NCBI RefSeq assembly: GCF_003019035.1
Contig: NZ_CP027448.1
Direction: 5' to 3' (one strand)
Length of the DNA: 64,000 nucleotides
Source: Escherichia coli
GTDB taxonomy: Bacteria > Pseudomonadota > Gammaproteobacteria > Enterobacterales > Enterobacteriaceae
Shown: positions 12,101-20,441 of the stretch, piece after piece
Layout: each line of letters begins with the position of its first letter
Position numbering within the stretch: the stretch's first letter is position 1
Made by a program: the position numbers

Positions 12101-15100
12101 CAGGGGCGAAAGTTTAGTTCTGAAGGGAAAGGGTGATAAGAGATAAAATATCTGGCCTGCGGTAGCAGACCAGACTTATTAGTTTGAGCGAGAGTCATTA
12201 CTCTACACAGTAATCAATTCTGCAATTTTTGTTGCGACAACTTCCAGCGTGTCTTCTCCCGTGTCCAGACCGCTTCGGGATGCGAGCAAGGGACTAACAT
12301 TGCGGAGAGCTTCATACGTTGTGTTATGAACGATCGGTACGAGTTGGTTACCGGCCAGTAAAGCTGAGAGCTCTTTATCAGCAACGCCTTCTTTGGGCAG
12401 TCGGTTTAACAGCGCTGGAGTCACTAATACCAAACCGATTCGAGAATTTGCTAATCCTTTATCGATGGCACGCATCATGGGAACGCCAAGAGCAAGATCC
12501 TTTTCGCTAAACCATACTTTGACGCCTGCAGCCTCGAGCAAATCGTGTAGCTCTTTGGCTACACCTTGTCGATCATCCCAAGCGTGACAAAGGAATACAT
12601 CACGCAAATCCGGCTTCTCTGCTACAAGCTTCTCCACCGTTTGGCGAATCGGTGTGAGGGATTGTACCTGGGCGGTTGTGTAGGAAACGGAAGACCCCGA
12701 TTTTGACCAGCGGGGCTTTGTGCCGCTGCTGGATCCTCCGCCACTGCTTCCACGACTTCCGCCAGCGCTGCCTGACGAGGAGTAGGACGGATAACTATCA
12801 TAACTGTAGCTGCTGCGGCGATAACCACTGCGATTGCGACAGGCTGGACAGGCAGCCGCAGCTGCTGCTGAGCTATGTCCACGTACAGGAGCCGTACATC
12901 TGGGCATGTTCTCATTTCCCCTTAGTATTCTGGAATAAATCCGCTGTGATAGTAAAACCAGATAAGTAATGGGGATTATTGATTGCAAACTCAATGTCCA
13001 TATTTTCAAAAGCTTGCACTTCATCACACTGTCACAGCTGAACTATCCAATAAAACCAAAAGAGCAGGGGGCTAGCGTTTCCGACTGGGGCTGAATTCAT
13101 CCGGATTTATCAGAACCGGATTAATCATCCTGAGTTGTTCCTGAACTCTGGCCTGGGCCCGTCGTTTGGGCATCTTTTTGCTCCGGTCACGCTTGCCATC
13201 GCGTTCAAGTTCATCCATTTTGCTTTGAGCCAGTTTTAAAACAGCCCCAAGACGTTTGTTATCAACGATTTGCCCCAGATCAACGCATTCCAGTTTGTCG
13301 AACACCTGATATTTGAGTGAACGGTAACCGTATTTGAATGCCAGTGTACCGTCAGGATAGTCGTAGACTGTTATTTTCTCGCCAGCGATACGAGCATTTT
13401 CTTCTGTTGGGTCAACGAGATATATCATTTTGACATATCGGAATGTCAGTGTTTTCGATAGCTTGCGCGATTCCTGCCATGCAAATATATCATCCAGCTC
13501 TTCGCCACTTTCTGCCACCGGGCGATGCAAATCTTTGGGATACTTTGCGGGCCTGGCGAAACGACGATTGAAGTCAGCTATGAAAGTAGCCAGCCAGGCG
13601 TTCGCTGCTTCAATGCTGCTAATTCCTTTAAGACGCATTTCCTTGATAAGTCGGTCCTGAAGTGTCTGATTTGCTCGCTCCACACGGCCTTTAGCCTGCG
13701 GACTGTTGGCACAAATCAACTCGATCCCCAGTTCAGAAAGTACACGGCCAAACTGTGTGATGCCGGTTGTGGTTGAACCACCATTATTGACCCTGAAAAT
13801 GCCGTGCTTGTCGCTGTAGAATGCAAGTGGCTTGCCGTGTTGTTCGAGATACTCGCGGGTGGCCATCATGTAATCAAAGGCTGATTCAGTCTCACCAAAG
13901 CGGAGGTGCATCAGGCGGCCAGTCGCGTCATCAATAAAGACGCGCAGGCAGCATTTCGGTGCCCGGCCTTCAAACCAGTCATGTGGAGAACCATCAATCT
14001 GAACAAGTTCTCCCAAGCAGTCACGCCGATATCTGGGCTGATGAACACGGGGCCTGCGACGTGAGTAAGGAACCAGAGTCCATCAGCCGTCATCCATTGT
14101 CTGAGCGTTTCAACAGATACTGTGATGTTGTGCCGTTCGCGTAATTTTTCTGCGGCCAGTGTTGGTCCAAAGTCGCTGTAATGGTCGTGAAGTAACGAAA
14201 GAACACGCAGCTTCAGTGACTCAGGAAGCCTGTGATTACCGGGGCGTCCACGCCGAAGGTTTGCCAGTCCTGCTGCGCCAGATTCGTGAAAGCGGTTCAT
14301 CAGACGCTGTGTCTGACGTTCGGTCAGAGCAAACAGCTGAGCTGCATCACGACGGCGCATGCGCTTTTCAACAACTGACTGAATGACATTGATCCGACTG
14401 AGTTCTTTATCTGACATGGTCACAAGCATCCTGATGTCTCCGTGGCCTGAGGATTGGATCCTTTATGCCAGAAAAAGTGACATTACTAAATGGGTTAAAA
14501 GTGACATCAGAATATTGGAGTTACAACCATAGAGCGCATAATCTATCTTATGTTAAATTTTCATCTGTATCATGTCCGATGTTCTTTCCTTTCTTTATAT
14601 TTTACATCTGTTCACTTAATGTTCAACTATATAGTGATTAGACATTTTAATATCGTGTTAAGATACAGAGAGTTAGTGAAAAACGACAACTCTTATTAAG
14701 TATTTGTTTTTTAATTATTAAGTGATAGATAGAATATACCTATAGGAATAATCACAAATACAAACACTTGTAAAATTCATATTTTTCAATTAGTTAATAA
14801 ACAACATTAACAATAAGTGCTTTATTTATTCTATTGCGCTTTATTTAAGAATTTTTACGTTTAAAATAAAAAAAATAATCAACTAGGAGACTGTAATATT
14901 AACATAATAACCAAAATTGATTCATCCATCCTTTTATTTTGAATTGACATAGGAGGATTGATTTTATTTACAAAAATAACCATTTAATTATTAAATGGAA
15001 AGATAATAGCTATTCCATACATAATAATTATTATTCCTACTAATTGGGTTTGTTTATAATATAATAAACGCTTAGATTGTGACTACCATCTAAAAGATGG

Positions 15101-18100: not shown

Positions 18101-20441
18101 AATATAAAATATCATCTTCCACATAATTTCTTTATTACTGTGAATATTAATCCTGAAGATATTATCACCTGTGATCTTGAAAGGGAATGTTTGCATTTTA
18201 TCAAAGTTTTTGGGAATGACAGAATAAGGCTTACCCTGCAATTATCAACTAAAGATGATCTTTGCATAATACAAAAAAAACAGTCTTCTTTAAACCGGCT
18301 CAGGAATAACAATATATATTTATCTCTTAATGATTTCGGTATTGGCTATGCAGAACTATCACACTTGCAAAACATACCTTTATCATATATAAGTTTGCAT
18401 AAAACAATATTCCATAATATAGAGGATAGTAGGTTAACAGATATAATAGCAACTACTATTATTGATTTATCAAAACAATTGAATATAGATGTTATTGCTG
18501 ATGGTATAGAAACAAAAAATCAGGCTGAATACATGATTGGAAAAGGAATTAAATATTTAAAAGGTCCTGTATTATCCTCTCCACTATCAGAGGATGAATT
18601 TTTACGTAAGTTGTTAGAGTCATTTAATAAAGTCTAACAATCAGAACTATCTTCTACAAGGAGGAGTGATTAGTTCAAGCATAGAACATCTGTGGTCCAG
18701 AATAGAAAAACGCCGTATACTGTTCTAAGAGAATATTTAGGATTCTGTGTAAATGCCTTTTCTCAGATGTGACCGTCCAAGTGGTCACCATACTTGATAA
18801 TAAAACGGCTCATTTCCATACGGCAGTCCTTCAACGGCATCATCCATTTCTGGGATGCCGACTGGATTGCCTGCCACACCACTTTGTTCACCGAGTCGTC
18901 TGTCCGGAAGACTTTATACTTTTTTGAACGCATGGGGATCGCTGTTTAGAGACTCGATGGAATTCGTCGTAGATAGCACTTTGCAGATGGCTGGATTTTC
19001 CCCTATATTTCCAGACACCTGTTATCACTTAACCCATTACTGGCCCGCTGCCGTAGATATTCCCGTGGCGAACGATAACCCAGTGCACTATGCGGATCCA
19101 TTCGTTATCATGCTCGAACACTTCTGCAAGGTTCTTTGCTGCCGTGAACCCGTCTGGTTTGAGCATGACACTGATGTAGTCACGCTTTATCGTTTTCACT
19201 AAGCTCTTTGCTATGCCGTTACTCTCCGGACTCCACACCGCCGTGTTCTTCGGTTCAAGTCCCAACATCCGGGCAAACTGTCGTGTTTCATTATCCCGGT
19301 GGCATGAACCATTATCCGTCACTCTACTGGAGACGCCGGAAGCTCGTTGCCGAAGCGGCGTTCCACCGCTCCCAGCATGACGTCCTGTACTGTTTCACTG
19401 ACGAAGCCGCCCGTAGTGACCGCCCAGTGCAGTGCCTCACAGTCACAGCAGTAGTCCAGCGCGAACGTGACTTGCAGTTTTCTCCGTTATCACAATGGAA
19501 CTCGAACCCGTCAGAGCACCATCGTTGATTGCTTTCTTTCACGGCCACTTTGCCTGTATGTGCCCGTTTCGATGGCGGTACAGCGGTTTTTCACTCAAGC
19601 AACAGCGCATTCTGGCGCATGATCCGGTAAACACGTTTAGCATTGATCGCAAGCATACCATCAAGTTCGGCCTGTCTGCGAAGCAGCGCCTATACCCGAC
19701 GATAACTATACGTGAGCAGTTCTCCGATAACATGGTGTATATGGAGAAGCACATCCGTATCATCTGAGTGACGGCTGCGGCGACCATCTTTCCAGTCATC
19801 GGTTCGTCTGAGAATGACGTGCAACTGCGCACGCGACACTCGGAGACAACGGCTGACTAAGTTTACTCCCCATCCCCGGGCAATAAGGGCGCGTGTGCTA
19901 TCCACTTTTTTGCACGTCCATATTCAACGGCTTCTTTAAGGAGTTAATTTTCCATCGTTTTTGCCGAGCAGTCGCTGGAGTTCTTTAATCTGCTTCATGG
20001 CAGCAGCAAGTTCAGAGGTAGGAACGACCTGTTCTCCTGCGGCCACAGCAGTAAGACTTCCCTCCTGGTATTGCTTGCGCCAGAGAAATAACTGGCTGGC
20101 TGCCACACCGTGTTGCCAGGCAACAAGGGAGACCGTCATTCCCGGTTCAAAGCTCTGCTGAACAATAGCGCTCTTTTCCTGTGTAGTACGCCGTCTGCGT
20201 TTCTCCGGTCCTAAGACATCAATCATCTGTTCTCCAATGACTAGTCTAAAAACTAATATTAAGACTATCACTTATTTAAGTCATATTAGTTTTCTGGAGA
20301 TTCAGGCGGCCAGTCTAATGGTCATCGTATAGCTCAGAACGTGGCAAAATTTAGCCAGTTAGACTGCCAGATTCAGCTTATTTAGTATAGCTACTGTCCC
20401 AGACCGTAGAAAATGGTCAACAAAAACTGGCCACCGAGTTA

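Follow-up and report, generated by a model that had tools for sequence, protein, structure and literature searches.

The sequence analysed here is a window of 64,000 nucleotides of Escherichia coli DNA (one strand of contig NZ_CP027448.1, RefSeq assembly GCF_003019035.1), and the subject of this report is an AT-rich island in it that carries a cluster of six genes. In the composition profile the GC content was 0.24-0.31 over positions 14500-18750 compared with about 0.45-0.53 on either side, which confirmed the low-GC island proposed in a previous interpretation of the window that was made without database searches (the sequence-only reading). Based on the open reading frame (ORF) listing and comparison with relatives, six plus-strand genes were identified between 15097 and 18637. 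The first gene (15121-15309) encodes a 62-amino acid protein to which no function was assigned, or one of 70 amino acids if the alternative start at 15097 is used. It is followed by genes for a 200-amino acid cytoplasmic protein that is a possible atypical GadE/DctR-like helix-turn-helix (HTH) regulator (15316-15918), a lipoprotein of the YuaE family (lipoprotein 1, 15911-16324, lipobox LSGC with Ser at +2), a membrane-anchored bactofilin (16331-16909, with a probable start at Met11, position 16361, and an internal Met57 at position 16499), a second YuaE-family lipoprotein that is a paralog of the first (lipoprotein 2, 17055-17471, lipobox ITGC with Thr at +2) and an HTH-EAL protein that is a paralog of PdeL (17570-18637, alternative start 17582). 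The tight same-strand run described in the sequence-only reading was thus found, but its sixth gene, encoding the 62-amino acid protein, had been missed and its proposed start at 14450 included about 650 bp of non-coding leader.

The spacings within the cluster are 6, -8, 6, 145 and 98 nucleotides. Given the distances of 6, -8 and 6 nucleotides between the first four genes, translational coupling is possible and these genes very likely form one operon. The tight spacing from which one or two operons had been suggested was therefore confirmed, and the suggestion stands for genes 1-4 while the remaining operon structure was not established.

Positions 10729-14251 of the reference F plasmid NC_002483 carry all six genes, identically ordered and oriented and without a disrupted ORF. 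The window and F clusters share about 81% nucleotide identity and 68-94% protein identity, and given this nucleotide divergence the window cluster represents a distinct allele lineage. The ratios of nonsynonymous to synonymous substitution rates (dN/dS, Nei-Gojobori method) between the window and F were 0.15, 0.11, 0.04, 0.24, 0.12 and 0.25 for genes 1 to 6, with dS of 0.5-0.8. Each of the six is a genuine gene evolving under purifying selection, and the alternative of random AT-rich ORFs, which the sequence-only reading had proposed to check by homology and neighbourhood, was excluded by these ratios (0.04-0.25) together with the intact F orthologs. Conserved gene order and intact orthologs also supported the view that the island is a coherent module on a mobile element with both regulatory and envelope parts. 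It is unrecognised in the sense that no functional study of the cluster genes was found in the literature on F-plasmid bactofilin/EAL, on yua genes or on bactofilin together with autotransporters, and the RefSeq labels of the genes are hypothetical, bactofilin or EAL; as a gene order it is not new, given that the sequence has long been public on the F plasmid.

The distribution of the cluster was surveyed by megablast against 5,426 complete E. coli genomes. The full cluster was found in 54/5426 genomes, in 40 places on plasmids and in 14 on chromosomes. The chromosomal context that was examined (L044) is integrated F DNA, and the remaining chromosomal matches are mostly laboratory K-12 F-derivative strains as judged by strain name. 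The window allele (at least 99% identity) occurs in six cattle- or farm-associated plasmids, and the other 48 records match at about 81-83%, most of which are classical F or relatives of it. About twenty of the records are, by strain name, laboratory F, F-prime or Hfr strains, and derivatives of XL1-Blue, JM109, TG1, NEB Turbo, Stbl4 and Origami are among the cluster-bearing records. Since the block is carried by classical F, it is present in many everyday laboratory strains without containing a gene with a described function. The EAL gene is frameshifted in one record (H6); the label 'LuxR C-terminal-related regulator' given there by the Prokaryotic Genome Annotation Pipeline (PGAP) is the N-terminal half of this frameshifted gene.

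The last gene of the cluster had been described as PdeL-like, which was correct with regard to ancestry and architecture. Pfam matches to GerE (E = 1.1e-5, residues 27-76) and EAL (E = 1.1e-25, residues 118-338) were obtained, and the best match among solved structures was full-length E. coli PdeL (7pk5, E = 1.6e-55 over residues 12-347), with 54% identity to PdeL in the HTH domain and 27% in the EAL domain. The implied role as an enzyme of cyclic di-GMP (c-di-GMP) metabolism is very unlikely. A strict E-value homolog search defined an HTH-EAL family of four clusters (the window protein and three F-lineage clusters), with intermediates towards PdeL falling outside this set. In all four clusters 9/13 catalytic or substrate-contact positions of the EAL domain are replaced, and the fixed changes in PdeL numbering are E141D, R145S/A, E232Q, E235T, D262N, K283S/N, D285H/N, E319D and Q339K. 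The window protein has D141, T143, S145, Q232, T235, N262, S283, H285, D319 and K339, with L143T as an additional change, and in the three F-lineage clusters position 145 is A, position 283 is N or S and position 285 is H or N, while Q127, N200, D263 and E322 are kept. The window protein consequently lacks the intact catalytic set of a PdeL/YahA-type phosphodiesterase. Given that the same pattern is present in every family cluster, the degeneracy of the EAL domain is old and conserved and does not represent recent decay. The best NCBIfam model was NF007839 (c-di-GMP phosphodiesterase), which at 94.8 bits was below its cut-off of 461.

Besides being an enzyme, PdeL acts as an activator under c-di-GMP control that opposes H-NS at its own promoter, and roles in biofilm escape, motility and phage N4 sensitivity have been ascribed to it (10.1101/2021.10.01.462762). 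In PdeL, K283 is the catalytic base and strictly required for catalysis, substitutions of E141 or K283 result in full de-repression even at high c-di-GMP, the E235A, T270A and D295N variants are locked in the R state, constitutively active and no longer under c-di-GMP control, and K60 is needed for DNA binding (10.1101/2021.10.01.462762). K60 is retained in all members of the plasmid family, whereas the hinge positions are changed (E235T, T270E and D295S/N, with N in the F lineage) and the dimerisation residue shows the conservative change S298T, so that the set of residues forming the c-di-GMP-responsive R/T switch of PdeL (E235, T270, D295 and S298) is not preserved. As judged from these residues, the HTH-EAL protein is most likely a regulator rather than a phosphodiesterase. 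Very probably it is a PdeL-derived DNA-binding regulator without catalysis, in which the control by c-di-GMP has been lost as well, and c-di-GMP turnover by this protein is very unlikely.

The protein thus resembles PdeL in its two-domain architecture, full-length homology, K60 and a Thr at the position of S298, and differs from it in being encoded on a plasmid at the end of an envelope gene cluster and in the replacement of 9/13 site residues and of the hinge residues. Degenerate EAL regulators that act without catalysis include E. coli YdiV/RflP and BluF/YcgF as well as c-di-GMP receptors of the FimX/LapD type; a description of BluF is given in PMC3509220. In these proteins, as in the plasmid protein, selection has preserved the EAL fold despite the loss of catalytic residues, and a regulatory role is implied by this, but YdiV/RflP, BluF and FimX/LapD act via protein-protein contacts or c-di-GMP binding whereas the output domain of the plasmid protein is a PdeL-type HTH. 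We know of no degenerate EAL regulator of the YdiV/BluF/FimX/LapD kind with a LuxR-type DNA-binding domain.

Two paralogous lipoproteins flanking a membrane-anchored bactofilin had also been described, and this arrangement was corroborated for all three genes. The two lipoproteins match each other with a BLASTP E value of 2e-10 and 27% identity, and they carry the lipoboxes FMLSGC (lipoprotein 1) and YITGC (lipoprotein 2), neither with Asp at +2. The lipobox Cys is nearly invariant in 59 family members. A custom hidden Markov model (HMM) of the YuaE family matched the window lipoproteins at 1.4e-37 and 5.5e-37, and PF27278, which has its name 'YuaE' from the F gene, is precomputed on close homologs (P0026-P0034) and on neighbours in a distant lineage of loci (L009-L013, described below). 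The family is small, with 75 members found by a profile search of 1.84 billion representative proteins. Lipoproteins that do not have Asp at +2 are sorted to the outer membrane, and given that neither sequence has Asp there, both lipoproteins are predicted to be outer-membrane proteins. An AlphaFold2 model of lipoprotein 1 based on 59 sequences had a predicted local distance difference test score (pLDDT) of 86 overall and about 97 for residues 50-137, and showed a three-helix bundle attached through a flexible tether of about 25 amino acids; across the 59 sequences C57 and C116 do not vary. According to this model, the YuaE lipoproteins are tethered bundles of three helices that are capable of forming a disulfide. 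A Foldseek search of the PDB with the model gave nothing below E = 0.6 and only generic helical bundles, and the matches in the AlphaFold database were uncharacterised lipoproteins across Enterobacterales and one DUF1311-labelled entry. When a genome collection was scanned with YuaE alignments, the broad alignment had no usable conserved stretch and the narrow one gave no confirmed locus.

The bactofilin matched PF04519, the beta-helical bactofilin/DUF583 core, with E = 2e-19 over residues 71-167 (97/98 model positions). Two hydrophobic stretches are present within residues ~11-53, with 19-residue Kyte-Doolittle means of up to 1.9-2.4, and this N-terminal region is conserved in relatives down to 31% identity (the 31-33% lineage), with M11, F13, W20, W27 and F58 invariant across them. 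PGAP calls a short form that starts at Met57, but the 56-codon extension before Met57 is open in every lineage, and because these upstream codons are open, hydrophobic and contain invariant residues the longer, membrane-anchored form is supported, with Met11 (16361) probably being the conserved start. Met57 (16499) begins the sequence MFPKGRK in the window, MFSKGK in F and MFSVKRK in L005, and is preceded at 4-5 nucleotides by a GGAGAG Shine-Dalgarno sequence. Transmembrane helices are found in about 3.2% of bactofilins, mostly gammaproteobacterial ones (PMC12448750). In Proteus mirabilis CcmA, a full-length integral form and a shorter form starting with MFSRKTE, which matches the bactofilin membrane-targeting sequence, have been described (Hay et al. 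1999, summarised in PMC12448750). As compared by description, CcmA and the plasmid protein both have N-terminal transmembrane segments followed by the bactofilin domain, and the candidate internal start of the plasmid protein (Met-Phe-x-Lys) resembles, as that of CcmA does, the membrane-targeting sequence; by analogy an integral and a shorter peripheral form are both plausible for the plasmid bactofilin. CcmA differs in being a chromosomal cell-shape and swarming factor, whereas the bactofilin studied here is plasmid-borne. In the Caulobacter crescentus BacA-PbpC, Helicobacter pylori CcmA-Csd5/Csd7 and Hyphomonas BacA-M23 endopeptidase systems a bactofilin likewise works with, or is encoded beside, envelope proteins that it positions, but those clients are peptidoglycan enzymes or transmembrane adaptors whereas on the plasmid an autotransporter and a pair of small helical lipoproteins are the neighbours. 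No published description of a combination of bactofilin, two small lipoproteins and autotransporter was found, and among 20 loci obtained by scanning the genome collection with a bactofilin alignment none had YuaE neighbours. A cysteine cluster, G-E-C-C-C-S, was observed in the bactofilin core at residues 132-136 (~16730-16745), with G-E-C-T-C in the distant lineage; to our knowledge such a cluster is not a general feature of bactofilins.

The 200-amino acid protein had been designated a LuxR-type regulator, an identity that our results did not establish. No Pfam match was obtained even up to E = 10 and no NCBIfam match was found; in a search of the PDB with the family profile the best LuxR-type match had E = 0.37; hhalign of the family against the PdeL-type HTH gave a probability of 0.7%; and the AlphaFold2 model, with a pLDDT of 46, was unreliable. 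A weak signal was observed when the family was aligned by hhalign with GadE and DctR (K-12 sequences), which was collinear over residues 77-153 (P = 0.002, probability 12.5%, to be read against a control for thin profiles in which a genuine LuxR HTH reached 30% at best), and the BLASTP match to GadE/DctR had E = 0.01. GadE and DctR (YhiF), which belong to the acid fitness island of E. coli, are small LuxR-family regulators of an atypical kind. They are similar in size (175-200 amino acids) and likewise encoded in AT-rich, horizontally acquired DNA, and the weak collinearity covers a 'P-x-x-I-F-F/V...S-I' segment and the putative HTH; the plasmid protein differs in having no significant GerE/LuxR profile match and in a 12-residue hydrophobic insertion before the putative HTH. 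On sequence grounds, a GadE/DctR-like HTH regulator is plausible but unproven. In a search of 5.8 billion proteins the family amounted to 25 clusters with identities of at least 66%, and all of those with a named source come from E. coli. The ATG at 15316 aligns with the F start, and the TTG in the raw ORF list (15310) lies two codons upstream. PGAP leaves the gene uncalled in all inspected RefSeq records of the complete E. coli genomes, including an F-prime plasmid, which results in an apparent gap of about 600 bp, whereas a 200-amino acid coding sequence (WP_000271587.1) is given in the PLSDB version of the reference F record, NC_002483. The preceding gene for the 62-amino acid protein is intact in F, L042 and L005, and its product had no match in NCBIfam, PADLOC or PHROGs.

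Upstream of the first gene, by about 250-380 nucleotides, a conserved non-coding core was found at 14742-14874 (no strand given). This block is common to four diverged lineages (window, F, L042 and L005), is conserved block-wise and may be the promoter/operator region of the cluster. Its invariant strings are TAGGAATAATCACAAA, GTTAA...TTAAC, TTTAAGAAT and GTTTAAAATA. It includes an inverted repeat, GTTAA-N10-TTAAC, and a string, TAAGAAT, that resembles an RcsB-type half-site. An Rfam scan of 14000-19200 gave no family.

The window begins within an autotransporter gene. Positions 2-3004 (+) encode the C-terminal part (~1000 codons) of an F-type autotransporter whose gene is truncated at the window edge, and this part was 98% identical (tblastn) to residues 769-1769 of the F autotransporter. 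This gene is followed by a homolog of the ~89-amino acid hypothetical gene that comes after the autotransporter in F-like plasmids (3084-3320, +; tblastn 70% to the 89-amino acid ORF of L042, no family match) and by a gene for a 230-amino acid hypothetical protein (3719-4411, +; 78% to the L042/F WP_000286435-type ORF, no NCBIfam match). In the F-like plasmids L042 and L043 one strand carries, in order, one or more large autotransporters, the 230-amino acid ORF, insertion sequence (IS) debris and the six genes, and in the yua region of the F plasmid, where the autotransporters lie at 21541-31673 of NC_002483, the cluster is downstream of the same autotransporter family as in the window. The window differs from F in that an insertion of about 10.7 kb (a 224-amino acid ORF, katG, cytochrome b562, IS fragments, a frameshifted TIR gene and an ISNCY element) parts the autotransporter half, which ends at 4411, from the cluster. 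The island therefore represents the downstream half of an older F-lineage (IncF) accessory block, composed of autotransporter, two small genes and six genes, that was split by later insertions. The sequence-only reading had regarded the island as cargo between two transposase remnants; ISNCY and IS3 remnants do flank it, but the history is that of half a block. The block is also mosaic: its autotransporter half is ~98% identical to F and its six-gene half ~81%, and in the plasmids with the cluster allele of the window the autotransporter matches at ~91% and from window position ~1007 onward only. This unequal identity indicates recombination within the block. Among the complete E. coli genomes the autotransporter was present in 52/54 cluster-bearing records and the cluster in 52/53 autotransporter-bearing records.

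The association with autotransporters was also seen outside the F lineage. In a distant lineage (L009-L013, with one protein named by NCBI as from Citrobacter werkmanii) the genes for lipoprotein, bactofilin and lipoprotein occur without the regulators and the bactofilin is 31-33% identical. In L009 an autotransporter gene whose product has a confirmed beta-barrel immediately precedes the trio, and the window autotransporter is 51% identical to it (tblastn). The proteins upstream of the trio in L009 and L013 are 49-51% identical to the F autotransporter. The locus adjoins an AraC gene and an RTX toxin operon, and no match to this trio was found in 72,556 plasmid records or in complete E. coli genomes. 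An HMM scan of all retrieved loci found the trio in two lineages only (F-type and L009-L013). YuaE genes without a bactofilin were found 70-80 nucleotides upstream of large inverse autotransporter genes of the intimin/invasin type in three unrelated contigs (L016 1318-5900; L020 2169-5440/L021; L046 6001-11728, where an IS element splits the pair inside an apparent integrative element), and in L049 a YuaE gene is convergent with a pertactin-type autotransporter gene. Since YuaE relatives without bactofilin are also located beside type V secretion genes, the lipoprotein family itself appears to be tied to autotransporters. A third allele lineage was observed as well (L005 7811-9407, and L006-L008; ~66% protein identity). 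There the 61- and 200-amino acid genes are followed directly by the bactofilin gene, lipoprotein 1 is absent and IS debris is in place of lipoprotein 2 and the EAL gene; in L005 the cluster adjoins a peptidase-C39 ABC exporter pair on an IncFII replicon.

The interpretation that we favour, and put forward tentatively as a good possibility, is that the cluster encodes an adhesin-associated envelope trio (lipoprotein, membrane-fixed bactofilin, lipoprotein) that is co-inherited with the F-type autotransporter and governed by a non-enzymatic, c-di-GMP-blind PdeL paralog together with two small proteins of unassigned role. The PdeL paralog would not hydrolyse c-di-GMP and probably would not respond to it, and would instead act as a constitutively active DNA-binding anti-silencer that opens the AT-rich, presumably H-NS-silenced locus and possibly acts at PdeL-controlled host promoters also. 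The bactofilin would polymerise on the cytoplasmic face of the inner membrane into a static scaffold, possibly with integral and peripheral forms, and both lipoproteins would reach the periplasmic face of the outer membrane. The trio would then act on the envelope in a way that supports the linked autotransporter adhesin, e.g. in its placement, display or biogenesis. This is the weakest step, and its sole basis is the conserved gene order and the location of YuaE relatives beside other type V secretion genes.

Several observations weigh against the favoured interpretation. The six genes are known here from sequence alone. Hardly any of a two-helix hairpin is exposed in the periplasm, so that it is not obvious how the bactofilin could contact lipoproteins of the outer membrane. 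Loss of c-di-GMP binding was judged from residue changes alone, with Q127, N200, D263 and E322 kept, and some degenerate EAL domains still bind c-di-GMP. The region of the PdeL tetramer residue L168 is poorly aligned and has Lys in the F lineage, so that oligomeric behaviour may differ from that of PdeL. The co-occurrence with the autotransporter in E. coli largely reflects one plasmid lineage, including the roughly twenty laboratory F, F-prime and Hfr strains, rather than independent events, and given the distance of about 10.7 kb to the cognate autotransporter in the window, co-transcription is not required. Outside the F lineage a type V gene was present in 5 of about 8 informative YuaE contexts, as a raw count, and no type V gene was found in the available sequence of L015, L017/18 and the short contig L048. 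Consensus scans for promoters and terminators were at chance (39 found compared with 33.8 +/- 5.6 expected in AT-rich DNA) and were not used, leaving the operon structure past the first four genes not established.

The most serious alternative, in our judgement unlikely but well worth weighing, is an envelope or cell-shape module that is independent of the autotransporter, in which the polymer, like P. mirabilis CcmA and other bactofilins, scaffolds remodelling of the peptidoglycan or envelope with the lipoproteins as periplasmic clients, and in which the synteny with the autotransporter reflects no more than the shared ancestry of one mobile block. The closest chromosomal relatives, found in Klebsiella and Yersinia, occur as single genes without a neighbouring autotransporter, the trio in the window is ~10.7 kb from its cognate autotransporter, and bactofilins typically act in morphogenesis and recruit envelope enzymes (PMC12448750); however, no peptidoglycan enzyme was found in or beside the cluster in any lineage examined, and YuaE relatives without bactofilin still adjoin type V genes. 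An improbable alternative is effectively silent hitchhiking cargo: an AT-rich remnant, silenced by H-NS, that at present serves neither host nor plasmid and persists through its linkage to a successful plasmid backbone. The very low GC content (25-30%), the IS elements that flank and interrupt the block, its dispensability for F replication and transfer and the loss or breakage of copies (the EAL frameshift in H6, and L005 without lipoprotein 1, lipoprotein 2 and the EAL gene) are all compatible with such cargo, but the dN/dS ratios of 0.04-0.25 in all six genes between lineages with dS of about 0.5-0.8, the conservation of the degenerate EAL residues themselves and that of the upstream non-coding block argue against it. 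Still less probable is a scaffold for plasmid biology, in which the membrane-fixed bactofilin would position the plasmid, the conjugation machinery or mating contacts, in analogy with the bactofilin-ParABS scaffolds of Myxococcus. The near confinement of the E. coli cluster to IncF plasmids or integrated F DNA and the ability of bactofilins to organise DNA segregation machinery (PMC12448750) would fit this idea, whereas the trio is also found in L009-L013, which adjoins an RTX toxin operon and has no match in 72,556 plasmid records, the cluster contains no par, tra or DNA-binding partner, and the lipoproteins point to the periplasm and away from the nucleoid. The least probable alternative, an active PdeL-like phosphodiesterase that lowers c-di-GMP to control surface structures, has in its favour the clear PdeL homology, the EAL Pfam match and a c-di-GMP phosphodiesterase model as best NCBIfam match (though at 95 bits against a cut-off of 461), and is countered by the replacement of the catalytic base K283 with S or N and of the metal ligands E141, E232, D262 and E319 and of R145 in every family member.

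An extended form of the favoured interpretation, which we consider speculative and distinctly unlikely as a whole, is that the F plasmid and its relatives carry two undescribed devices. One would be an R-locked, c-di-GMP-blind PdeL paralog that binds PdeL boxes or forms mixed oligomers with host PdeL and thereby overrides the bistable motile-sessile and phage-N4-sensitivity switch of the host; the other would be the trio as a dedicated spatial or biogenesis factor for type V adhesins, in which case the wider YuaE family would make up a class of lipoproteins, so far unrecognised, that assist both classical and inverse autotransporters. Should the PdeL paralog indeed be c-di-GMP-blind, F-plus and F-minus strains may differ in biofilm escape, motility and phage N4 sensitivity. 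If the plasmid-borne anchored bactofilin serves the autotransporter, bactofilin biology would extend from cell shape to the organisation of surface adhesins, and if the trio does so, this would be the first functional hypothesis for the YuaE family, which is recurrent beside inverse autotransporters across Enterobacterales. Even if the block is silent cargo, a phosphodiesterase annotation is corrected and a conserved 200-amino acid gene uncalled by PGAP in the inspected RefSeq records is flagged. What is new compared with the public F sequence is the recognition of a PdeL paralog that is degenerate and 'R-lock-like', of a CcmA-like bactofilin with a possible dual start and of the recurrent linkage of YuaE to type V genes, as well as the reconstruction of the split block.

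The six cluster proteins were also compared with models of anti-phage defence and with phage protein families. No matches to PADLOC defence models were found for them, and their PHROGs matches were limited to generic EAL-domain families of unknown function, by which an anti-phage defence function or a phage origin of the cluster was ruled out.

To the left, the island is bordered by an ISNCY-family transposase gene that is frameshifted into two overlapping ORFs (13072-14429, -) and annotated as intact ISNCY in the near-identical plasmid L001. To the right, IS3-family transposase fragments (18763-20271, -) are annotated in L001 as a frameshifted or partial transposase and integrase-core pseudogenes. 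In four near-identical plasmids (records H1-H4, e.g. NZ_CP043829.1 75211-80975) about 1.56 kb of extra DNA was observed inside the stretch that matches 14450-18650; the match consists of two aligned pieces (5765 bp compared with 4201 bp) and an ISNCY transposase is annotated under it. Just left of the ISNCY element in the window is a TIR-domain gene (12203-13027, -), frameshifted according to the annotation of L001 and L003; in L043 an intact TIR gene with a P-loop NTPase neighbour is located near the cluster and may be a defence gene. Within the ~10.7 kb insert, katG (catalase-peroxidase, 7867-10080, +) and cytochrome b562 (10126-10515, +) are so annotated in L001, and this stretch is reminiscent of the katP region of plasmids of enterohaemorrhagic E. 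coli. Beyond the IS3 fragments the window contains a second autotransporter gene, of the Ag43/AIDA-like type (20892-24422, -), which encodes a highly repetitive protein of 1176 amino acids with near-identical ~40-amino acid passenger repeats. As a cognate partner of the trio it was ruled out, given 21-23% identity over a ~375-amino acid stretch with the F-type autotransporters. It adjoins an autotransporter O-heptosyltransferase gene at 24434-25609 (-).

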